Shown here: one piece after another, positions 276-55,787 of the stretch
Layout: every line of letters begins with the position of its first letter
Position numbering within the stretch: position 1 is the stretch's first letter
NCBI GenBank assembly: GCA_036496425.1
Contig: DASXLG010000304.1
Coordinates: 7,919-71,918 of the forward strand
Origin: Terriglobia bacterium
GTDB lineage: Bacteria > Acidobacteriota > Terriglobia > 20CM-2-55-15
Length of the DNA: 64,000 bases
Direction: 5' to 3'
Notes under the pieces: generated by a model
The model's input: only the letters and a program-made list of their open reading frames with translations
Told to the model about the DNA's origin: nothing
Database searches by the model: none
Program-made: the position numbers and the translations under genes

Positions 276-851
276 TTATGCAGCGCGCTTCTTTTTTGTG
301 ACCTGGTCCATGACCGTTTCGAATGCCGCGCCGGCCGTCCGGACAGCCCGAGTCAAAAGGCCCGCTTGAAGTTGCATTTTGCGTTCCTGCATCTGTCTGC
401 CGAGTTCGCGGAGCTTTTCATCACCAATGGCCCTGCGGGCTTTCGGAAACATCTGCGACTCTTCTTCTTCGGCGTGATGATCGATAAGATCTTTCAGCAC
501 CTTCGCCTTGGCGCTGAATTCCTCAGACTCAACAGTGGTGGATTTGATTTCGGGTAATACGATGTCGACCAGATGATGTTCTTCCAGCGCCTCGAAATAA
601 AGGTGCCCGTCCGGCTTCCGCACCGCTGCTTTATAGGCCGGATAGAAAATTTCCTCTTCGATCTGAGTGTGCATCTTGATTTCGGTTTCGACCTCTTTCA
701 ATAGCGCTTCGCGCCGGCTGCCGGCTCTCTCCGTCGTTCGGTCCAGAGAGCTGAGCAAACGTTTCACCTTCCGGTGATCCTGAACCAAAAGGCTAATTGC
801 ATTAACAGCCCGGGCCGGGCGCCTCCTGCTTGTCTTCGAACCAGATGGCAT
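276..851 (-). CDS. Hemerythrin-like (HHE cation-binding) domain protein
   Basis: 191-aa ORF with spaced His/Glu motifs (LLVQDHRKV..., EHHLVD..., DLIDHHAEEEE) typical of hemerythrin-like metal-binding domains. Confidence 0.55.
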   Translation of the reverse strand: MPSGSKTSRRRPARAVNAISLLVQDHRKVKRLLSSLDRTTERAGSRREALLKEVETEIKMHTQIEEEIFYPAYKAAVRKPDGHLYFEALEEHHLVDIVLPEIKSTTVESEEFSAKAKVLKDLIDHHAEEEESQMFPKARRAIGDEKLRELGRQMQERKMQLQAGLLTRAVRTAGAAFETVMDQVTKKKRAA

Positions 852-960: not shown

Positions 961-1971
961 CTACCGGAAATTGACGGAACGCTGGGAACGCAAGAAAGCT
1001 GCGATCGGATCGAGCTGCGTGGCTCCGCCGATATTCCAGCGGAGAAGGACGCTCGAGGCATCGATTGGAAGCGATGCGATATTACCCACGTACTTCGCAC
1101 GGGCTTGAATGTAGTCTTCAACATTTGAAATGTAGAAGACGTGCACCGTTGCACCATGATCCTTCAGGTATTGACCGACGGCTCGAATCGCCTTCGGGCC
1201 GGCGAAGTCGCCCACCAGCGGCACAATCCGATTCTGCTGCTGCATAAGGCGGACCCGGTCATAGTTTTCCTTCGTTGCGAGATAAGCCCAGTTTTTACCG
1301 CGGCCGTCGGTGAGCGTCATTAATGTTGCATAGCCCGGGCTGAGGAAGCTCGAGTTGAAGAGTTCGACGCCTTCCCCCGCGAACGTCCGGAAAAGAGTAC
1401 GGATTCCGCGTTCATCCTCGGCCGTCAGCGCGAAATGATGCCGCGTCTTCAAGCGATCCACGATCAAGTTGGCGTTTTTCGCGGCGAGCGCCGGATCGGC
1501 CGGCACACGCGCGAACGCTTCAAAGATCGTTGCAACAGGACTATCGCCGGTCAACTGGGGCGGGGCTCTCCTTGAAAAAAGATTCGCGACGAATTCCACG
1601 CGGTTTGCAGACATCTCGAAGACGCATTTGTACATCAGGTGTTCCAGCATCATTTCGCGCCGGATATCGAAGATGAACGCGATCTTCGGTTGCACTGCCG
1701 CGATATAGGTGAAGTTCTGTTCCGGTCCAACGCCGAGGTACGCCCCGCCGGCGCGCGGTGTCTTCATGAGGTCGGGAAGAGAATGCTGATAGGTCAGCTC
1801 GTTCGATGTGACGACGTTGTATTGATAATATCCGGCGGGTTCAGAGAAATCGTTGATCATCTTCCAATATTCCGCGTCGCTTAACTGAGGCGGCAGCGTT
1901 TCCGCAGATAAAACGATCTGCAGCAACACGAGACAAACCGTTATGACGGATAGCCAGCAGCGAAGGCGCAT
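961..1971 (-). CDS. Secreted protein of unknown function; paralog of 49303..50229
   Basis: The track ORF 961..2439 has a GC-frame N-extension. The start is reassigned to MRLRCWLSVITVCLVLLQIVLSAETLPPQLSD (ATG = revcomp 1969-1971), which gives a signal peptide. Shares blocks ETLP-QLSD-E-WK, GVGPEQNFTYI, IFDIRR, VGDFAGPKAIRAVGQYLKD, SNVE with the ORF at 49303..50229. Confidence 0.6.
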   Translation of the reverse strand: MRLRCWLSVITVCLVLLQIVLSAETLPPQLSDAEYWKMINDFSEPAGYYQYNVVTSNELTYQHSLPDLMKTPRAGGAYLGVGPEQNFTYIAAVQPKIAFIFDIRREMMLEHLMYKCVFEMSANRVEFVANLFSRRAPPQLTGDSPVATIFEAFARVPADPALAAKNANLIVDRLKTRHHFALTAEDERGIRTLFRTFAGEGVELFNSSFLSPGYATLMTLTDGRGKNWAYLATKENYDRVRLMQQQNRIVPLVGDFAGPKAIRAVGQYLKDHGATVHVFYISNVEDYIQARAKYVGNIASLPIDASSVLLRWNIGGATQLDPIAAFLRSQRSVNFR

Positions 1972-1990
1972 TTTTAGAGACCTCACAGCT

Positions 1991-3838
1991 TTATTCCAGG
2001 CCGAGTTCGCCGCAGCGCCGGCGAAACGATGTAGGGTGCCAGCCGAGGCGGCGGGCTGCTTCCGCCCGGTTCCTGCCGGTCTCGCGAAGGATTCGTTCGA
2101 AAAGGGATTTCTGAAAGGCGTCGAACTCCCGGTCATACAGCGTCCCGCCGTGCGCAGCCGTGGAATCGGAAGGCGCCCGGACCTCTTTAGGCAGATCTTC
2201 CGGCAGGATGTAGGGCGTCGCACCCATCGAAATTGCCCACTCGATCGCGTTTTCGAGTTCGCGAACATTGCCGGGCCAGCCGTACGCGCCGAGCAATCGA
2301 TGGGCTTCAGGGCTGATTCCCGCGACTTCGGGATACGGCGCGCACCGGATGCTCCGGTGCTTGCGGACGAAATGTGCGGCCAGTTCCGGAATGTCTTCGC
2401 GGCGTTGGGCAAGGGAGGGCATCTGGAGTGGGAGAACATTCAGCCGGTAAAACAAGTCCTCCCGGAAACGCCCCTTCTGGACTTCTTCGCGCAGGTCGCG
2501 GTTTGTCGCCGCGATGATCCGCACGTCCACTTTGATCGGAGTGTGCGAGCCGAGCCGTTTGACTTCGCCTTCCTGAATGACGCGCAGAAGATCCACCTGC
2601 ATGTTCAGTGGAAGTTCGCCGATTTCATCCAGAAAGACCGTGCAGCCGTCGGCGTCCTCGAATAGCCCTTTCCGCTGGGCGACCGCGCCCGTGAACGCGC
2701 CGCGTTCATACCCGAACAGCTCGCTTTGCAGCAGGCTTTCGCTGAACGCACCGCAATTGACCGCAATGAGGCGTTTCGGCGCCCGCGGGCTGTTGCGGTG
2801 AATCGCATACGCCACCAGTTCCTTACCCGTACCACTGGGGCCGATGATCAGAACAGGCCGCTCGCCTGGACCCGCGCGGCCGATGAAGGCATACACCTCC
2901 TTCATTCGTTCACTCCTGCCGATCATCCCGTGCTCCGCGTAAAGCATTTCGGTCAGGCGGCGGTTTTCGGTTTCGAGCCATGTGACGTATCGCAGGTGCT
3001 CGAGGGCGACGGCCGTCGACGCAGCGACCGATTCCAGCACCGCGATGTGGCCGGCGGTGAACCATTCGGCGCCCGCCTGCGCCATCGCGGCGTAGATGAC
3101 GCCCACCCTGGTGTCGAAAGCCGTCATCGGATAACAGACCGCCTTGTCTGTGTAATTCGGAATGCCTTCGCGAAGAACTCTGACAGCGGCCGCTTCATCG
3201 ACCGGAAATGCATCGCCGTTGCGCGATCCCAGGCTGCGGTAAGTGGACGAAACGAAGCGGTCCTGCTCGTGGCCCGCCATCAGGATTGCCGCCCGGTCGA
3301 CCGGCATGACCTCAAAGATGAAATCGAGCGCGCGCCCCTGGATTTCCTCCGCCTTGCGGATCGCATTGATCGAAGCGTGCAGCTGCAAAACCGCGGAGAG
3401 GGTCGTTCCTTTTGCGGCTTCGTAGTGTCCGGCGCGATCCGGCGGGTAGTTATCGTAGCACCAGCGCCGCTCGGCCGGCGTGAACTGCAGCAGCGATGCA
3501 TCCACCTGGTCATGCAGAAGGTAAACGAAGATCGAACGGCCGATCCGAATGTGGTCGCCGTGATCCGCGAACTTCCCGGGAAAGGAGAATTCGTTCACAA
3601 ATGTCCCGTGCTCGCTGCAGCAGTCCAGAACCATGCAACGATCCTCTTCGAACGTGATGCTGCAATGCTTGAGCGATACGAGCGGATCTTTCAGAGAAAT
3701 GTGATTGCGCGCTCCGCGCCCGATGTCGAGCTTCGATTTACCTAGCGGAAATTCCATGCCCTCGAATTCGCCGGCAATACCCAGAAGTCGCGGATTCATG
3801 ATGCCGGACATGCTAGTGGAATACAGAGTCTCGCGCAC
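1991..3838 (-). CDS. Sigma-54-dependent transcriptional activator (bacterial enhancer-binding protein) with N-terminal FHA-like and GAF-like regions, an AAA+ sigma-54 interaction domain and a C-terminal Fis-type HTH
   Basis: GPSGTGKE Walker A, GAFTGA sigma-54 contact motif, EDLFYRLNV, WPGNVRELEN, C-terminal HTH (AARRLGWHPTSFRRR); N-terminal ~100 aa resembles an FHA domain. Confidence 0.9.
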   Translation of the reverse strand: MRETLYSTSMSGIMNPRLLGIAGEFEGMEFPLGKSKLDIGRGARNHISLKDPLVSLKHCSITFEEDRCMVLDCCSEHGTFVNEFSFPGKFADHGDHIRIGRSIFVYLLHDQVDASLLQFTPAERRWCYDNYPPDRAGHYEAAKGTTLSAVLQLHASINAIRKAEEIQGRALDFIFEVMPVDRAAILMAGHEQDRFVSSTYRSLGSRNGDAFPVDEAAAVRVLREGIPNYTDKAVCYPMTAFDTRVGVIYAAMAQAGAEWFTAGHIAVLESVAASTAVALEHLRYVTWLETENRRLTEMLYAEHGMIGRSERMKEVYAFIGRAGPGERPVLIIGPSGTGKELVAYAIHRNSPRAPKRLIAVNCGAFSESLLQSELFGYERGAFTGAVAQRKGLFEDADGCTVFLDEIGELPLNMQVDLLRVIQEGEVKRLGSHTPIKVDVRIIAATNRDLREEVQKGRFREDLFYRLNVLPLQMPSLAQRREDIPELAAHFVRKHRSIRCAPYPEVAGISPEAHRLLGAYGWPGNVRELENAIEWAISMGATPYILPEDLPKEVRAPSDSTAAHGGTLYDREFDAFQKSLFERILRETGRNRAEAARRLGWHPTSFRRRCGELGLE

Positions 3839-3845
3839 GAGAAAA

Positions 3846-4260
3846 ACGCGTGCAGTGCTGGAAATGGCTTAGCAGCGTTGCATCCCCGATTCCAGCGCCG
3901 GAAATGGTTGAGCAGTGCTGCACCGCCGATTGCTGTGTAGGAAATGATTGAGCAGTGTTGCATCGGCGATTGCAGTGCAGCAGAAGATTCAGCAGTGCTG
4001 CATCCCCGGTTGCAAGGCGGCAAATGGTTCAGCAGCGCTGCATCGCCGATTGCAGTGAAGCAAACGATTTAGCAATGCTGCATCGCCCGTTGCAGCACTG
4101 CAAATGCCGGAGCAGCCTTGCAGCCTGCTTTGCGCCGCTGCAAAAGGTTTAGCAGTACTGCTTCGGCAGATGCAGCGCAGCATCCGGTTTTGCAACGCTG
4201 CATCGGCAATAGCAGTCTTGGAAATGATTCTGCAGCACTGCATCGCCATTTCCCGGATAA
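3846..4260. repeat. Tandem array of ~10 degenerate copies of a 40-bp unit (approx. GAAATGGTTGAGCAGTGCTGCATCGCCGATTGCAGTGCAG); non-coding minisatellite in a divergent intergenic region
   Basis: Units phased exactly every 40 bp from 3861 to 4260 (a partial unit at 3846-3860); all positions are similarly conserved, so there is no spacer alternation. Both strands carry short mirror ORFs with repeated peptides, which are artefacts. Confidence 0.85.
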
Positions 4261-4291
4261 CAAACACCGACGGGGTGCGTCGGCGCTATTT

Positions 4292-4330
4292 CGCAACCTA
4301 CAGGTTGCGGACCGCAACCTGTAGGTTGCG
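4292..4330. promoter_or_regulatory. Two adjacent 18-bp palindromes, CGCAACCTACAGGTTGCG-GAC-CGCAACCTGTAGGTTGCG; candidate enhancer/UAS or operator
   Basis: Each element has perfect 8-bp arms around a 2-nt centre, and the two are reverse complements of each other. They lie ~75 bp upstream of a candidate sigma-54 -24 element and ~150 bp upstream of the FN3 gene start. Confidence 0.45.
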
Positions 4331-4404
4331 GTCGTCGAAAGCCTTTCCCATCCCCGGGCCTTGCAAGTTATTGATTTTTAAAGAATGGCATCCGGGCGCG
4401 TGAA

Positions 4405-4420
4405 TGGCACAGCGCGTGCG
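4405..4420 (+). promoter_or_regulatory. Candidate sigma-54 (-24/-12) promoter, TGGCAC-N5-GTGC, upstream of the FN3-domain gene
   Basis: Perfect -24 TGGCAC, 5-nt spacer, and a -12 GTGC that keeps the conserved GC. It sits 60 bp upstream of the ATG at 4480, and a sigma-54 activator gene lies divergently. Confidence 0.35.
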
Positions 4421-4479
4421 ATATAGGACGGCGTTCGTTGGAATTCAATCGCGGGGCGGTCCCGCAGAAAGGAGGGAAT

Positions 4480-5121
4480 ATGACAAAGACAATACCGATC
4501 AAAGCCTTGCTGGGTTTCAGGAGAAACTCAGCGAATGATGTACTCGCCCGGGTAAACGCCGTTCTCGGCGGGGTATTCACCGATACGGTCGACTATCCCA
4601 ACCCGTCTATCGATCTGGCGACGCTGAAATCGCAAGCCGATGCACTGTCGGCCGGCATTTCGGCGGCGTTGGACGGCGGCAAGAGAGCCATTGCCGAACG
4701 GGAACATCAGAAGGAGATCGTGATCAAGTCGTTGCGTCAAATCGGACACTACGTCGAGGAGAACTGCAAGGACGACATGACGATCTTCCTGAAGAGCGGA
4801 TACGACGTGGTCTCCACGACACGTGTTCCGGTTGCTCCGTTGTCGGATTCGATCCGCAAGATCGTTCCGGCCAACAACAGCGGCCAGATGCTCGTAACGC
4901 TCATCGCTCAGGCGGCCGCGCTCAGCTATGTTTTGCGCTGGGCTCCGGTCGCTGCGGGCGGGATGCCGGGAAACTGGACCGAGCAGCCGGTGGGCACCAC
5001 ACGCCCGCCGGCGCTGGTAACCGGTTTGACGCCGGGCACGGCCTACGCTTTCCAGGTCCGTGCCGTCACGAAGGCCGGTTATACCGACTGGCGTGAGTCC
5101 GTCACGCGGATCGCGATCTAG
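4480..5121 (+). CDS. Hypothetical protein with a C-terminal fibronectin type III-like domain
   Basis: The track ORF 4438..5121 is trimmed to MTKTIPIK, which has an RBS (GGAGGGAATATG). C-terminal LTPGTAYAFQVRAVTKAGYTDW is an FN3-like signature. No signal peptide. Confidence 0.65.
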   Translation: MTKTIPIKALLGFRRNSANDVLARVNAVLGGVFTDTVDYPNPSIDLATLKSQADALSAGISAALDGGKRAIAEREHQKEIVIKSLRQIGHYVEENCKDDMTIFLKSGYDVVSTTRVPVAPLSDSIRKIVPANNSGQMLVTLIAQAAALSYVLRWAPVAAGGMPGNWTEQPVGTTRPPALVTGLTPGTAYAFQVRAVTKAGYTDWRESVTRIAI

Positions 5122-5131
5122 ATCCGTTTGA

Positions 5132-5177
5132 CATGTTAGAGGGGAGCGGGTGTGCACGCCCGCTTCCCTCTAACATG
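5132..5177 (+). terminator. Long GC-rich hairpin (~21-bp stem, 2 mismatches / G:U) immediately 3' of the FN3 gene; putative terminator without a clear U-tract
   Basis: CATGTTAGAGGGGAGCGGGTG-TG-CACGCCCGCTTCCCTCTAACATG starting 11 nt after the stop codon. Confidence 0.45.
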
Positions 5178-5213
5178 CACAGGTTCCGCCTCTTGCCAAG
5201 CCATCGTGGCGAA

Positions 5214-5586
5214 CTATTCCGCGGACTGATTGTTGGCACCCTCACTGGGTTCGACCCGGCCGAGCGCCTCATCGGTTGCGAGCTCCAAGTCATCAAGTTC
5301 GTCTTGCGAGAGCATTCGGATCTTCGCCTGTAGTGCCGATTTTGGAATCGCTCTCAACTGAAACGCGAGTGCAACAGAGTCTTCTCGTGGGCCATCCTCA
5401 GAAGCGAGGATCAAAGCAGTGCCAGCCAGGTTGGCTCTTTCGAGATTGGTTGTGAGGAATGACAAGAACGGATTGAAGAACGTTTGTTAACGTGTCGCTT
5501 TGCCAGATGATGACAGGCCGCCGACCCATTTGCTCGCGCGGTCGGTATGCTCCAAGATCTGCCCACCAGACTTCGCCTCGATTCAA
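5214..5586 (-). pseudogene. MazF/PemK-family mRNA interferase toxin, disrupted by a single frameshift
   Basis: ORF 5398..5586 (MNRGEVWWADLGAYRPREQMGRRPVIIWQSD...VLVIP) matches the MazF N-terminus. ORF 5214..5465 in another frame (TTNLERANLAGTALIL...REDSVALAFQLRAIPKSAL) matches the MazF C-terminus. Span 373 nt (372 + 1 nt). Confidence 0.6.
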
Positions 5587-5808
5587 TTATTGATCCTCTT
5601 CATCAAGGCTGGCAGACCAACTCGCAAGGCCGTCTTCGGCGAGATCCAGATCTTCCGTGGTCGCCGCCTTTCGAAAACGCTCGAGATCCCAGCGTTTAGG
5701 ATCCGGCTGCCGAACGATAATCAGATTCACGCGTTCACCTGAACGGAGCGGTAAAGGCTTTGTGGGCCTCAGCACTCCCTTTTCATAATGAGCTTCGACA
5801 AGTTTCAT
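5587..5808 (-). CDS. Putative antitoxin (DUF104-like small protein) upstream of the MazF-like toxin
   Basis: MKLVEAHYEKGVLRPTKPLPLRSGERVNLIIV resembles DUF104 antitoxin-like proteins. Its stop abuts the toxin start. The track ORF 5587..5904 is trimmed to the internal Met. Confidence 0.5.
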   Translation of the reverse strand: MKLVEAHYEKGVLRPTKPLPLRSGERVNLIIVRQPDPKRWDLERFRKAATTEDLDLAEDGLASWSASLDEEDQ

Positions 5809-5909
5809 TGAATTTATGCTATCACGGGCAACCACAGATCTGTTGTCCGATGGATATTGTGATTCTGTATTCGAAAAGGTGCAGAAATTTCCGAATTCCG
5901 TCAAACGCC

Positions 5910-6376
5910 GAATTCACCTCGAATCACGCCTGCCTATGGGCAGTTCTGGATAATTCGGTGTCTGTCCCCGGAATTCGAAATGCCGAGAAGGCGGAAGAAA
6001 TCGCCGTCGACTTCGTGACCGAGGCGGAATTGGAGCGGTATGTTCGGACCTTCGCGAATGCGGCGTTGACATAATCCATCGCGGCAAGGTCGGAGAAGGA
6101 TCGCGTGTTCCGGCAGAAATCGTCGAACTCGGGATAGGACATCGAGGATTCGCCGATCCCGCGAACCGGGAAGAACTGACGGCGGCGCCGATCATTCGGA
6201 GCGTGACGACTTGGGAAGGGTTGGGAACCGGGAGCGGCCGGAAGACCAGGCCGTTTGCGACGCTGAAGATGACGGAATTCGCGCCGATTGCCAACGCGAT
6301 GGAAGAGCTCTGCGGTCATGGCAAAGCCCGGAGATTGCCAGAGGGCGCGGAGGGCAAATTTGAAATCATTCAGCAT
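5910..6376 (-). pseudogene. 5' remnant of an ADOP-type (FtsX/MacB-like) ABC transporter permease gene; about 150 codons with two frameshifts, then truncated
   Basis: ORF 5924..6376 begins MLNDFKFALRALWQSPGF (characteristic ADOP N-terminus). ORF 5914..6294 in another frame holds IGANSVIFSVANGLVFRPLPVPNP. SYPEFDDFCRNTRSFSDLAA returns in the first frame. A full-length ADOP gene is ~2.4 kb. Confidence 0.5.
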
Positions 6377-6392
6377 CGGGGCATGATAACCG

Positions 6393-6553
6393 ATCGGGTC
6401 ATTGGGTCATCTGGTCAGGTACATGTGACGTTCGACATTGGACATTTCACATATGACATATGGGAAACCGTCCCCAATGTCACATGTCAAACGTCCCATG
6501 TCGAACGTCAAATGTACTTGACCAGATGACCCAACCACCAGATAACCCAATCC
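6393..6553. repeat. ~160-bp near-perfect palindromic element (MITE/REP-like) with ~35-bp terminal inverted repeats and internal GACAT / CACATGT repeats
   Basis: GGGTCATCTGGTCAGGTACATGTGACGTTCGACAT ... ATGTCGAACGTCAAATGTACTTGACCAGATGACCC (2 mismatches). The track ORFs 6203..6529(+) and 6407..6619(-) both end in ...MYLTR, which is a palindrome artefact. Confidence 0.6.
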
Positions 6554-6612
6554 ATTCCCCCTCTGCCGCACCCGCCAAATCTGATAAAGTACCGCCCCAG
6601 GAGAATCCTCAT

Positions 6613-54554: not shown

Positions 54555-55787
54555 TTGAAAACAGCTATCATTCTTCATTCGGAATCCGGCATCGTTTTTC
54601 TAGGCGATCCCCGTGTAAACATTGATCCAGGCCGGCACCTGTTCGAGCGCATGACGCAGGTCATGCGCGACACCGGCGCCGGCTGGATCTACTCCGATTC
54701 CATCGGTCATCCCCGCATCAACTATCAAACCGGCAGTATTCGAGACAATTTTGACTTTGGCGCTGTCATTGCAGTGCGCGCCGATGCTTATGAAAAGGGT
54801 GCGGAAACCAACTGGAGCACTCTTTATGATTTGCGCCTGCGCGTCTCCGAGAAATTTCCGATTGTCCGGATTCCGGAGCCGTTGTATTCCGGTTCCGCTG
54901 TAGATACGCGTCCTACAGGTCAGAAGCAGTTTGATTACGTCGATCCGAAAAACCGCGACTACCAGATTGAGATGGAACGTGTCGCGACGGCCCACCTCAA
55001 ACGGATCGGTTCCTATCTGGAGCCGCGCTTTCAGGCCGTACCTCCGCCGGCGGATGCATTTTCGGTTCGAGCCAGCGTCGTCATTCCAGTGCGAAACCGT
55101 GAGCAGACGATTCTCGACGCGGTGACAAGTGCCCTCAATCAAAAAACAGTTTTCAATTACAACGTCATCGTCGTCGATAACCATTCGACGGATCGCACGA
55201 CGGAACTGCTGCGTGGCGTTCGCGACTCCCGTCTCGTGCACCTGATTCCGGACCGCCACGATCTCGGCATTGGCGGTTGCTGGAACGAGGCGCTCTATTC
55301 AGAGCACTGCGGCCGGTATGCTGTTCAACTCGATTCCGATGATCTCTATTCCGGCGAAGAGGTCCTTGCGCGCATCGTCGGTGAACTGGAAGCGGGACCG
55401 TATGCGATGGTGATCGCCTCTTACACCATGGTGGATTTTTCTTTACAGCAGATCCCGCCTGGTTTGATCGATCATCGCGAGTGGACGCGGGAAAACGGCC
55501 GCAACAATGCCCTGCGCATCAACGGTCTCGGCGCGCCCCGCGCGTTCGACACATCGGTGCTGCGCCGGTTCGGTTTCCCGAACGTCAGTTACGGTGAGGA
55601 CTATGCCATGGCTCTGCGTATCAGCCGCGATTTCGATATCGGGCGGATTTACGACTCCGTCTATCTCTGCCGCCGCTGGGAAGGAAACACAGACACGGCG
55701 CTGCCTCTCGAAACAGCGAATCGCTACGACTCCTACAAAGACTGGATCCGCACGATGGAAATCAAGGCAAGGCAGGTGAAGGCGTGA
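54555..55787 (+). CDS. Family 2 glycosyltransferase with an ~170-aa N-terminal extension
   Basis: VVIPVRNREQTILDAV...VIVVDNHSTDRTTELL...DSDD typical of GT2. Confidence 0.75.
   Translation: MKTAIILHSESGIVFLGDPRVNIDPGRHLFERMTQVMRDTGAGWIYSDSIGHPRINYQTGSIRDNFDFGAVIAVRADAYEKGAETNWSTLYDLRLRVSEKFPIVRIPEPLYSGSAVDTRPTGQKQFDYVDPKNRDYQIEMERVATAHLKRIGSYLEPRFQAVPPPADAFSVRASVVIPVRNREQTILDAVTSALNQKTVFNYNVIVVDNHSTDRTTELLRGVRDSRLVHLIPDRHDLGIGGCWNEALYSEHCGRYAVQLDSDDLYSGEEVLARIVGELEAGPYAMVIASYTMVDFSLQQIPPGLIDHREWTRENGRNNALRINGLGAPRAFDTSVLRRFGFPNVSYGEDYAMALRISRDFDIGRIYDSVYLCRRWEGNTDTALPLETANRYDSYKDWIRTMEIKARQVKA

Follow-up and report, generated by a model that had tools for sequence, protein, structure and literature searches.

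The stretch analysed here (the window, 64,000 nucleotides of contig DASXLG010000304.1 from a Terriglobia bacterium of the Acidobacteriota) contains a divergent gene pair. One gene encodes a bacterial enhancer-binding protein (bEBP), called the activator below, and the other encodes a small protein with an FN3 domain. Between them lie a sigma-54-type -24/-12 element, two palindromes that may serve as its upstream activating sequence (UAS), an IHF-like site and a tandem array. A preliminary description had read the -24/-12 element, the palindromes and the activator gene as one sigma-54 regulatory module. It had passed over the IHF-like site and the 400-bp array, which fills the rest of the intergenic region. 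We compared the window with about 100 homologous loci that were fetched for this purpose (labelled L001 and so on). The features of the locus are as follows.

1991-3838, minus strand: activator gene, a bEBP with an FHA domain, a weak GAF match, an AAA+ sigma-54 interaction domain with the GAFTGA loop, a lid and an HTH_8 domain (Pfam)
3851-4250, no strand assigned: tandem array of 10 units of 40 bp, or 20 sub-units of 20 bp, in strict register (TRF period 40/80/120; printed in a 20-bp register)
4292-4309 (CGCAACCTACAGGTTGCG) and 4313-4330 (CGCAACCTGTAGGTTGCG), no strand assigned: candidate UAS, two 18-bp palindromes of the pattern CGCAACCT-NN-AGGTTGCG (uniqueness, conserved position and pairing, covariation with the helix-turn-helix (HTH) of the activator)
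4364-4376, minus strand: IHF-like site AATCAATAACTTG, a perfect match to WATCAANNNNTTR, centred at about -60 (one of two perfect matches in the window)
4405-4419, plus strand: sigma-54 -24/-12 element TGGCAC-AGCGC-GTGC (TGGCACAGCGCGTGC), with GG at 4406-4407 and GC at 4418-4419 (matrix and conservation)
4421-4427, plus strand: A/T-rich block ATATAGG, after the -12 element and before the predicted start; family consensus CTATArGG (column counts in 28 contexts, close-locus alignment)
4431-4479, plus strand: conserved leader, with GCGTTCGTT just past the predicted start, a hairpin and the ribosome-binding site GGAGG at 4471-4475 (close-locus alignment)
4480-5121, plus strand: FN3 gene, 213 aa; helical domain at the N-terminus, fn3 domain at the C-terminus (2.5e-7; Pfam)
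5132-5177, plus strand: perfect hairpin with a 21-bp stem, beginning 11 nt past the FN3 stop codon (fold -45 kcal/mol, z = -6.7)

The -24/-12 element and the tandem palindromes

The preliminary description had placed TGGCAC-N5-GTGC at 4405-4419, 60 nt before the ATG, and the bases read as it claimed. The last base of the element (4419) is 60 nt before the ATG at 4480, and transcription is predicted to start at about 4431. The GG at -24, the GC at -12 and the canonical spacing of the sigma-54 consensus TGGCAC-N5-TTGC (PMC12316311) are all present. The bare pattern TGGCAC-N6-TGC occurs once in the window against 0.63 expected, which is not significant alone. A matrix scan had been proposed in the preliminary description, and in the scan that we made with an approximate sigma-54 weight matrix of our own the site ranked third among about 128,000 window positions.

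Further evidence comes from conservation. Column counts were made over 28 distinct promoter contexts from the homologous loci. The bases T1, G2 and G3 and the bases T13, G14 and C15 were invariant (28/28), and C4, A5 and C6 were found in 25, 26 and 20 of the contexts. The first three bases of the spacer were variable, and so was position 16. An A/T-rich TATA block lies at about -9 to -6 across the contexts and is presumed to be the melting region (4421-4427 in the window). When six close loci were aligned, the conserved blocks were the palindromes, the IHF-like block, the -24/-12 element, CTATArGG and the leader. The placement of the promoter is also kept in homologous loci, with a distance to the ATG of 75-83 nt in close clades. 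A scan of 3600-6600 found no sigma-70-like site on either strand of 3839-4479. Thus 4405-4419 is very probably a real sigma-54 promoter that drives a small gene and is served by activator-binding palindromes and a bending-protein site.

The best sigma-54 matrix match in the window is elsewhere, at 54758-54773 on the plus strand (TGGCGCTGTCATTGCA, score 13.1). It was dropped as a second sigma-54 promoter, since by our reading it is inside the open reading frame (ORF) 54555-55787; it has no activator nearby and is probably a chance match.

Two 18-bp palindromes at 4292-4330 that are reverse complements of one another had also been described, and the sequence confirmed them: CGCAACCTACAGGTTGCG and CGCAACCTGTAGGTTGCG are exact reverse complements, and therefore 4292-4330 as a whole makes up a single perfect 39-bp palindrome (arms of 19 nt, centre of 1 nt). 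The palindrome is unique to this locus in the window, with four matches (two copies on both strands) against 0.06 expected. The two centres are at about -130 and -109 from the predicted start, in the range of about 80-150 bp upstream that is expected of dyad sites in a bEBP enhancer. They are 21 bp apart, so the palindromes are on one face of the helix, and we propose that they are the binding sites of two bEBP dimers. Tandem palindromes with a spacing of 21-22 bp occur in nearly all sigma-54-type loci, 65-128 nt ahead of the TGG of the -24 element. They are absent from FN3 paralogues that have no sigma-54 promoter. The mirror relation between the two palindromes is not kept among the loci, and at some loci they are direct copies.

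Across the sigma-54-type loci the palindromes fall into four sequence classes.

Class I: CGCAACCT-NN-AGGTTGCG; window, L001, L002 and L004; activator recognition helix HPTSFRRR
Class II: CACAACsT....GTTGTG (CACAACCT); L008, L009 and many others; activator recognition helix HQNSFRRR
Class III: TTCAAG... (TTCAAGAAAAATCTTGAA); no linked activator
Class IV: ATCCAGA (ATCCAGAAAAATCTGGAT); L094 and L095; activator recognition helix NPKYFSAR

In all three classes that have an adjacent activator, the palindrome class correlates with the recognition helix of the HTH. This covariation is the best available evidence that the palindromes may be the activator's sites. Together with the 28/28 conservation of TGG and TGC and the pairing of the palindromes, it supports the reading of a sigma-54 promoter with a UAS and a cognate activator that had been put forward in the preliminary description.

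The palindromes might instead serve another regulator, or form a cruciform or hairpin (a terminator or a REP-like element), while the activator binds elsewhere, for example in the array. A perfect 39-bp palindrome could indeed extrude or fold, and a hairpin-type Rfam pseudo-hit below threshold falls there. In addition, the cis-module is found without a neighbouring activator, and class III has none linked. On the other hand, the position of the palindromes is fixed relative to the -24 element and the pair spacing is held at 21-22 bp, and neither they nor the sigma-54 promoter are found in some paralogues. The perfect mirror relation is unconserved, no T-run follows, and the palindrome occurs only at this place in the window. 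The class covaries with the recognition helix, whereas the cores of the array differ among loci whose activators have identical recognition helices. We therefore consider this alternative improbable.

Since GGCAC-N5-GTGCC can be read as a 5+5 inverted repeat in many loci (e.g. TGGCACAGGCCGTGCC), we also put to the test whether a dimeric transcription factor uses the element as a palindromic operator. In that case an unrecognised promoter of the sigma-70 type would serve the FN3 gene, and other paralogues of the family do use sigma-70-like promoters. The columns argue against such an operator. Changes in the arms are uncompensated (T·G at pair 4-14 and G·T at pair 5-13), and pair 6-12 is complementary in just 17 of the 28 contexts. 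G2 is invariant but its partner, position 16, is variable, and the invariant bases are exactly the sigma-54 core. An activator with GAFTGA is linked to the element, and the intergenic region has no sigma-70-like site. An operator is thus very unlikely, and we continue with the sigma-54 promoter and its UAS.

The activator gene, the bending site and the FN3 gene

The product of the divergent gene has clear Pfam matches to FHA (PF00498, 3.6e-12), Sigma54_activat (PF00158, 8.4e-69), AAA_lid_14 (PF25601) and HTH_8 (PF02954, 3.8e-5), and the GAFTGA loop is encoded at 2701. It was below every equivalog cut-off in NCBIfam. The preliminary description had argued that this is not a classical two-component receiver protein, and a Pfam search indeed found no receiver (REC) domain in it. 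As input, the FHA domain would read a phospho-threonine partner, and a ligand at the GAF-like region is possible. The true start of the gene is probably the ATG at 3811 (MSGIM...) or at 3799 (MNPR...), since the N-termini of orthologues align from MSG or MNPR.

Orthologues with 73-78% identity are divergent to the FN3 gene in L002/L003, L008, L009 and about 15 metagenome loci. L094 and L095, of class IV, have a more distant activator (42-47% identity) that is upstream on the same strand. In L001, L004 and the L044 group, the same palindromes, promoter and leader are found, there is no activator gene within 3-5 kb, and the flanking genes are unrelated. Therefore, the activator probably serves several FN3 paralogues in trans, and the one encoded in the window probably also drives unlinked paralogues that bear the same palindromes. 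The words 'self-contained' and 'compact' in the preliminary description do not fit these loci, nor the several FN3 paralogues that occur per genome.

The array abuts the activator gene, so the activator's own promoter must lie in the array or beyond it. Within the array, TGGAATCGGGGATGCA at 3879-3894 on the minus strand has a sigma-54 matrix score of 11.0 and is oriented toward the activator gene, whose start codon would be 30-57 nt past the start predicted for this match. L002 carries TGGAATCGGGATAGCA at the corresponding place. This match could reflect sigma-54-dependent autoregulation of the activator, or it could be merely a unit of the array.

Two minus-strand genes are located 3' of the activator gene (276-851 and 961-2439). 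They comprise a DUF7790/LIC_10091-like lipoprotein gene and a homologue of the PA2171 family of ribosome-binding persister proteins (9.8e-53, just under the cut-off). The orthologous locus L002 does not have this neighbourhood downstream of its activator gene.

The IHF-like site sits between the palindromes and the promoter. Its block GCAAGTTATTGATT is conserved in L001 and L002 and has one mismatch in L004. Downstream of the promoter, the leader contains a small hairpin with the stem GCGGG (4451-4455)/CCCGC (4461-4465), 5-6 nt ahead of the ribosome-binding site. Its stem is invariant and its loop variable in all promoter classes, and AACCGCGGG-loop-CCCGCA is kept in FN3 paralogues with other promoter types. 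The leader as a whole is not unusually stable (z-score +0.84). Rfam 15 gave no match at the gathering score in 3700-5300, which includes the leader and the array, and only pseudo-hits below threshold were seen. The hairpin may be a leader RNA element. More distant paralogues have a second leader hairpin, GGGAGAAGGTCCGG...CCCTTCTC, and a block CACGCGCCGGGAAACCGTTAACC.

The FN3 protein has no obvious signal peptide by our reading. Its sequence shows 100% identity to a protein of a Terriglobia metagenome-assembled genome. We detected 185 homologues, nearly all of them about 213 aa long and from soil metagenomes. The family has multiple paralogues and is almost restricted to Acidobacteriota, with three or four paralogues in single metagenome-assembled genomes. 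An AlphaFold2 model (predicted local distance difference test, pLDDT, 84) consists of a helical N-terminal domain and a C-terminal FN3 domain. Searches with Foldseek against PDB and BFVD, with a PDB sequence profile, and against PHROGs, NCBIfam and PADLOC recognised the FN3 part and left the N-terminal domain unmatched.

The hairpin at 5132-5177 is likely to be the transcript end, although there is no U-tract behind it. Beyond it are convergent minus-strand genes, namely PemK fragments and an AF2212-like gene. With this hairpin after the stop codon and convergent genes beyond it, the FN3 gene is probably transcribed alone. The convergent genes look like a remnant toxin-antitoxin pair (5214-5904, minus strand), with a PemK/MazF toxin in two frames (5398-5586 and 5214-5465) and an AF2212-like antitoxin (5587-5904). 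The following minus-strand sequence, 5924-6376, begins with MLNDFKFALRALWQSPGF, which by our reading resembles the N-terminus of acidobacterial permeases of the MacB/FtsX type; Pfam gave no match for it.

The tandem array and its relatives

Between the palindromes and the activator gene, the array takes up the intergenic space. The gap between the array and the annotated activator start is 13 bp, and it widens to 40-52 bp if one of the likelier ATGs is used. The other end of the array is on the upstream side of the palindromes, roughly in register with them. TRF was used for repeat detection, and the array contains 9 copies of a direct repeat, every spacing being 40 bp, with no indel across 400 bp. 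Each 20-bp sub-unit consists of a 12-bp near-palindrome, wGCAGnnCTGCw, and an 8-bp spacer, and the spacers alternate between an A/T-rich (AAATGrTT) and a G/C-rich (TCGCCGAT) form. We read the 40-bp unit as a pair of 20-bp elements in alternating orientation, with two dyad axes. It is the only such array in the 64 kb, and matches to its motif are almost confined to 3851-4250.

Upstream of the FN3 gene, most of the homologous loci have an array whose period is 40/80 or 41/82 bp. The loci were dereplicated and classified with a script, which counted 15 sigma-54-type loci with an array and none without, and 6 other loci with an array and 14 without. Three loci (L025, L076 and L077) have promoters with intact GG and GC that the pattern of the script had missed, and these were reassigned by hand. 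In the corrected table (18, 0, 3, 14), arrays are present at 18 of the 18 sigma-54-type loci and at 3 of the 17 others. They are retained across paralogues with 46-83% protein identity. The copy number is about 4-14 units, and it is about 13 in L044/L055 versus 5.7 in the near-identical L052/L054. Identity within an array reaches 94-98%, indicating concerted evolution. The outer core triplets (TGC-N6-GCA) and parts of both spacers are conserved across the loci. The inner core positions differ, also among loci with identical recognition helices.

Measured from the first UAS palindrome and taken modulo 20, the position of the array cores is 0-4 in 11 of 12 loci, which are related to one another and are not independent trials. 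The array and the UAS thus form one lattice of about 20-21 bp. Arrays are also found at sigma-70-like FN3 paralogues that have no palindromes (L011, L013 and L070).

Similar arrays are present beside other genes. In L016 an array at 4188-4538 precedes TTGACA-N17-TATAGT and a PadR gene by about 80 bp. In L084-L086 (883-1344 in L085) the arrays are followed by TTGACA-N17-TACTCT and then by a large gene that lies ahead of the FN3 gene and matches AAA_16/AAA_22 weakly. Further arrays of the same style are at L004 1-192 and at L044 794-1003 (the same as L055 793-1003), the latter with TGCAGACCTGCA and GCAATCGCGATTGC. The period of all these arrays is 41-42 bp. In general, the arrays resemble one another in having a period of 40-42 bp, or about four turns of the helix, a dyad sub-structure and a position immediately upstream of a promoter; arrays at different loci have no common sequence motif. 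The array type looks like a general promoter-upstream element in these Acidobacteriota. Many metagenome contigs (for example L023, L024, L032, L033 and L036) break off 260-400 bp before the FN3 ATG, where the array seems to begin. Short-read assemblies appear to fail at the arrays, which are therefore probably more frequent than the counts suggest.

We tentatively favour the array as a phased scaffold for cooperative protein binding, with something short of an even chance that this is right. The wider proposal is more speculative, and we would call it possible but doubtful: lattices of 40-42-bp palindromes might be a previously undescribed promoter-upstream class in Acidobacteriota, in which a resizable scaffold of 160-560 bp holds an oligomeric protein on one face of the DNA, is coupled to the enhancer and sets promoter output. 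Such lattices would be obligatory at the sigma-54 promoters of this family and would also occur at some sigma-70 promoters. A literature search on sigma-54 with tandem repeats in Acidobacteria found nothing relevant. Three related ideas fared poorly. The array as a row of extra activator sites is not supported, since by our reading any likeness between its cores and the half-sites of the UAS changes in orientation and spacing from class to class. Binding of the FN3 protein to its own array was weakened as an idea once similar arrays were found beside other genes. The array as coding sequence was rejected, since 40 bp is not divisible by 3 and no ORF runs through the array.

Next after the scaffold, the array could be a functionless minisatellite that arose in a long intergenic region through slippage or unequal exchange, was homogenised by the same processes and travels with the gene. 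Near-identical loci differ in copy number from about 5.7 to 13 units, the units within an array are nearly identical in the manner of concerted evolution, and the sequence changes from locus to locus, all of which a minisatellite would explain. It would not explain why every array keeps a 40-42-bp period and a 20-bp dyad sub-structure without indels, or why arrays persist across such divergent paralogues and at every sigma-54-type locus but few of the others. The conserved TGC-N6-GCA cores and spacer parts, the register kept with the UAS and the recurrence of a promoter-proximal placement at unrelated genes also speak against it. We find this reading unlikely.

A role of the array as RNA is much less probable. 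The array would be transcribed in the FN3 sense as a string of hairpins, for example as a protein-sponge RNA or a structured leader. The plus strand folds more stably than the minus strand in 14 of 20 arrays, by up to 38 kcal/mol, and by our reading the spacers of L001 and L002 can pair if G·U is allowed. However, the asymmetry may be plain G+T skew, spacer pairing fails in arrays of the L008 type, and there are no compensatory changes within the window array. No promoter was found upstream of the array, which is itself upstream of the FN3 start and outside that mRNA, and Rfam has nothing at the array.

Least credible of all is a bank of weak sigma-54 holoenzyme sites (decoys or an antenna), with GG- and GC-type palindromes alternating at -24/-12 spacing on both strands: GG-N10-GC is enriched in the arrays of the window, L001, L002, L004, L008, L009, L044 and L064, with matrix scores up to 11 and the minus-strand match at 3894 that is 30-57 nt upstream of the activator start codon, but it is not enriched in the sigma-54-type loci L025, L031, L038 and L094, the base at -14 is mostly A, and the geometry follows automatically from TGC/GCA motifs phased at 10 bp. 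With the enrichment limited to some arrays, decoys were rejected as a general explanation.

The relatives also show how the promoter region of this family has been exchanged. In an FN3 clade with 68% identity, represented by L051, a T7-like single-subunit RNA polymerase gene on the opposite strand (1370-3808) replaces the UAS and the sigma-54 promoter. The polymerase is split into two ORFs (RPOL_N, 2.8e-25; RNA_pol, 4.4e-107). Its gene lies between a 40-bp array (923-1340) and the retained leader hairpin and ribosome-binding site, and an HNH endonuclease gene is nearby. The same arrangement was inferred for L047, L049, L050 and L061 from their common upstream sequence. Other FN3 paralogues have swapped promoter modules (L007 4780-4870, L085 1455-1550, L011 570-640, L070 840-900 and L013 5400-5740). 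One module is TTGACA-N17/18-TAnnnT flanked by GTTGTTCCA/TGGAACAAC repeats, another has three direct CTGATTTC repeats that are 21 bp apart, and that of L013 has four tandem copies of the TGTTACAAAC...TGTTAC type. Acido-Lenti-1 RNA motifs (Rfam RF01687, 50-56 bits) were found at L011 335-380 (minus strand) and 472-517 (plus strand), and at L013 9400-9445 (minus strand). Both copies in L011 are between the array and the promoter region of its FN3 paralogue.

The proposed circuit and known systems

The explanation that we favour, and consider likely, is single-gene transcription of the FN3 gene from the sigma-54 promoter at 4405-4419, with the palindromes bound by the FHA activator, looping assisted by IHF and the array as a companion element. 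From the anatomy of the locus, its conservation, the covariation and the domain content we infer the following course. The sigma-54 holoenzyme would form a closed complex at 4405-4419. Two dimers of the FHA-(GAF)-AAA+-HTH_8 activator would occupy the palindromes at about -130 and -109 and build an active AAA+ ring, which a bend by IHF at about -60 would deliver to the promoter. ATP hydrolysis through the GAFTGA loop would then open the A/T-rich segment at -9 to -6. A protein bound to the array, either the activator itself at low-affinity sites or an architectural or silencing protein, might set the occupancy of the enhancer.

Several observations weigh against this explanation. A motif search found no RpoN box within the window; with rpoN outside the window, its presence in the genome rests on the intact bEBP and on general knowledge of the Acidobacteriota. 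Position -14 is G or A, where the consensus has T. The covariation between palindromes and recognition helices comes from three linked classes and few independent events, and class III palindromes are without a linked activator. The IHF match is weaker in the L008/L009 clade. On the side of the input, no Ser/Thr kinase gene was found in the window, by motif search only. The activator had been described as having FHA, GAF and AAA+ domains; FHA and Sigma54_activat hold, while GAF_3 (8.8e-4, 20.1 bits) and GAF_2 (17.6 bits) are both below the Pfam cut-offs, although GAF_3 is listed without a mark of weakness in the L002 orthologue. As for the array, its cores resemble the UAS inconsistently, and the arrays at sigma-70-type promoters mean that a role specific to this activator cannot be general.

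To our knowledge, almost no promoters have been characterised in the Acidobacteriota. The promoter, UAS, IHF site and activator have a textbook architecture, and their use would be as a well-footprinted example in this phylum. Four enhancer specificities can be read from natural variation, three of them matched to recognition helices. If the array is a binding scaffold, the idea of a bacterial enhancer would grow from two or three sites to about twenty, and the array would be a natural tunable element for the design of sigma-54 circuits. An inert array would still be a recurrent source of broken assemblies at these loci.

No system known to us explains the lattice. REP units have one genome-wide consensus, are usually 3' of genes and are transcribed. 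Like the enterobacterial repetitive extragenic palindromic (REP) units and the bacterial interspersed mosaic elements (BIME) made of them (survey, PMC3733652), the arrays are extragenic short palindromes in alternating orientation with fixed linkers, variable copy number and several sites per genome. Unlike BIME/REP, they differ from locus to locus and lie upstream of promoters. Dispersed copies of one consensus, which define REP, were not seen in the window, where the array motif and the palindrome are confined to this locus. The plasmid centromeres parC/ParR (R1, pSK41) and tubC/TubR are phased tandem repeats on which dimers bind cooperatively, wrapping or coating the DNA. They too have at least 10 short repeats at one or two helical turns and often overlap a promoter. 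In contrast to them, the array has no partition genes, is chromosomal, is built of dyad rather than direct units and is linked to a sigma-54 enhancer, and binding to it is hypothetical. Thus both REP/BIME and the plasmid centromeres resemble the lattice in form only.

For the activator, the nearest parallel is in Myxococcus xanthus, in which Jelsbak, Givskov and Kaiser reportedly described FHA-domain enhancer-binding proteins in 2005. These activators are also mentioned in two reviews (PMC12288465, PMC6971385). The window activator shares with them the N-terminal FHA input, which implies coupling to a Ser/Thr kinase rather than a histidine kinase. It differs in its phylum, in the extra GAF-like region, in having no kinase gene nearby and in its unrelated target family.

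The circuit as a whole is closest to the IHF-assisted sigma-54 promoters that have two activator sites and a linked activator, such as glnAp2/NtrC, Pu/XylR and pspA/PspF (reviewed in PMC7057263). It shares with them the GG at -24 and GC at -12, two dyad sites on the same face of the helix some 100-130 bp upstream, an IHF site in between, and an AAA+ activator with GAFTGA and a Fis-type HTH. As in pspF-pspA, the activator gene is divergent. The sensor of the window activator is FHA (with the GAF-like region), whereas theirs is a receiver, V4R or none, and the -14 base of the window family is G or A. The output here is a small FN3 protein with several paralogues. Finally, a 400-bp phased palindrome lattice abuts the enhancer in the window, and theirs are not known to have one. 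The locus is of moderate interest, chiefly through this lattice, which sets it apart from the known sigma-54 systems.

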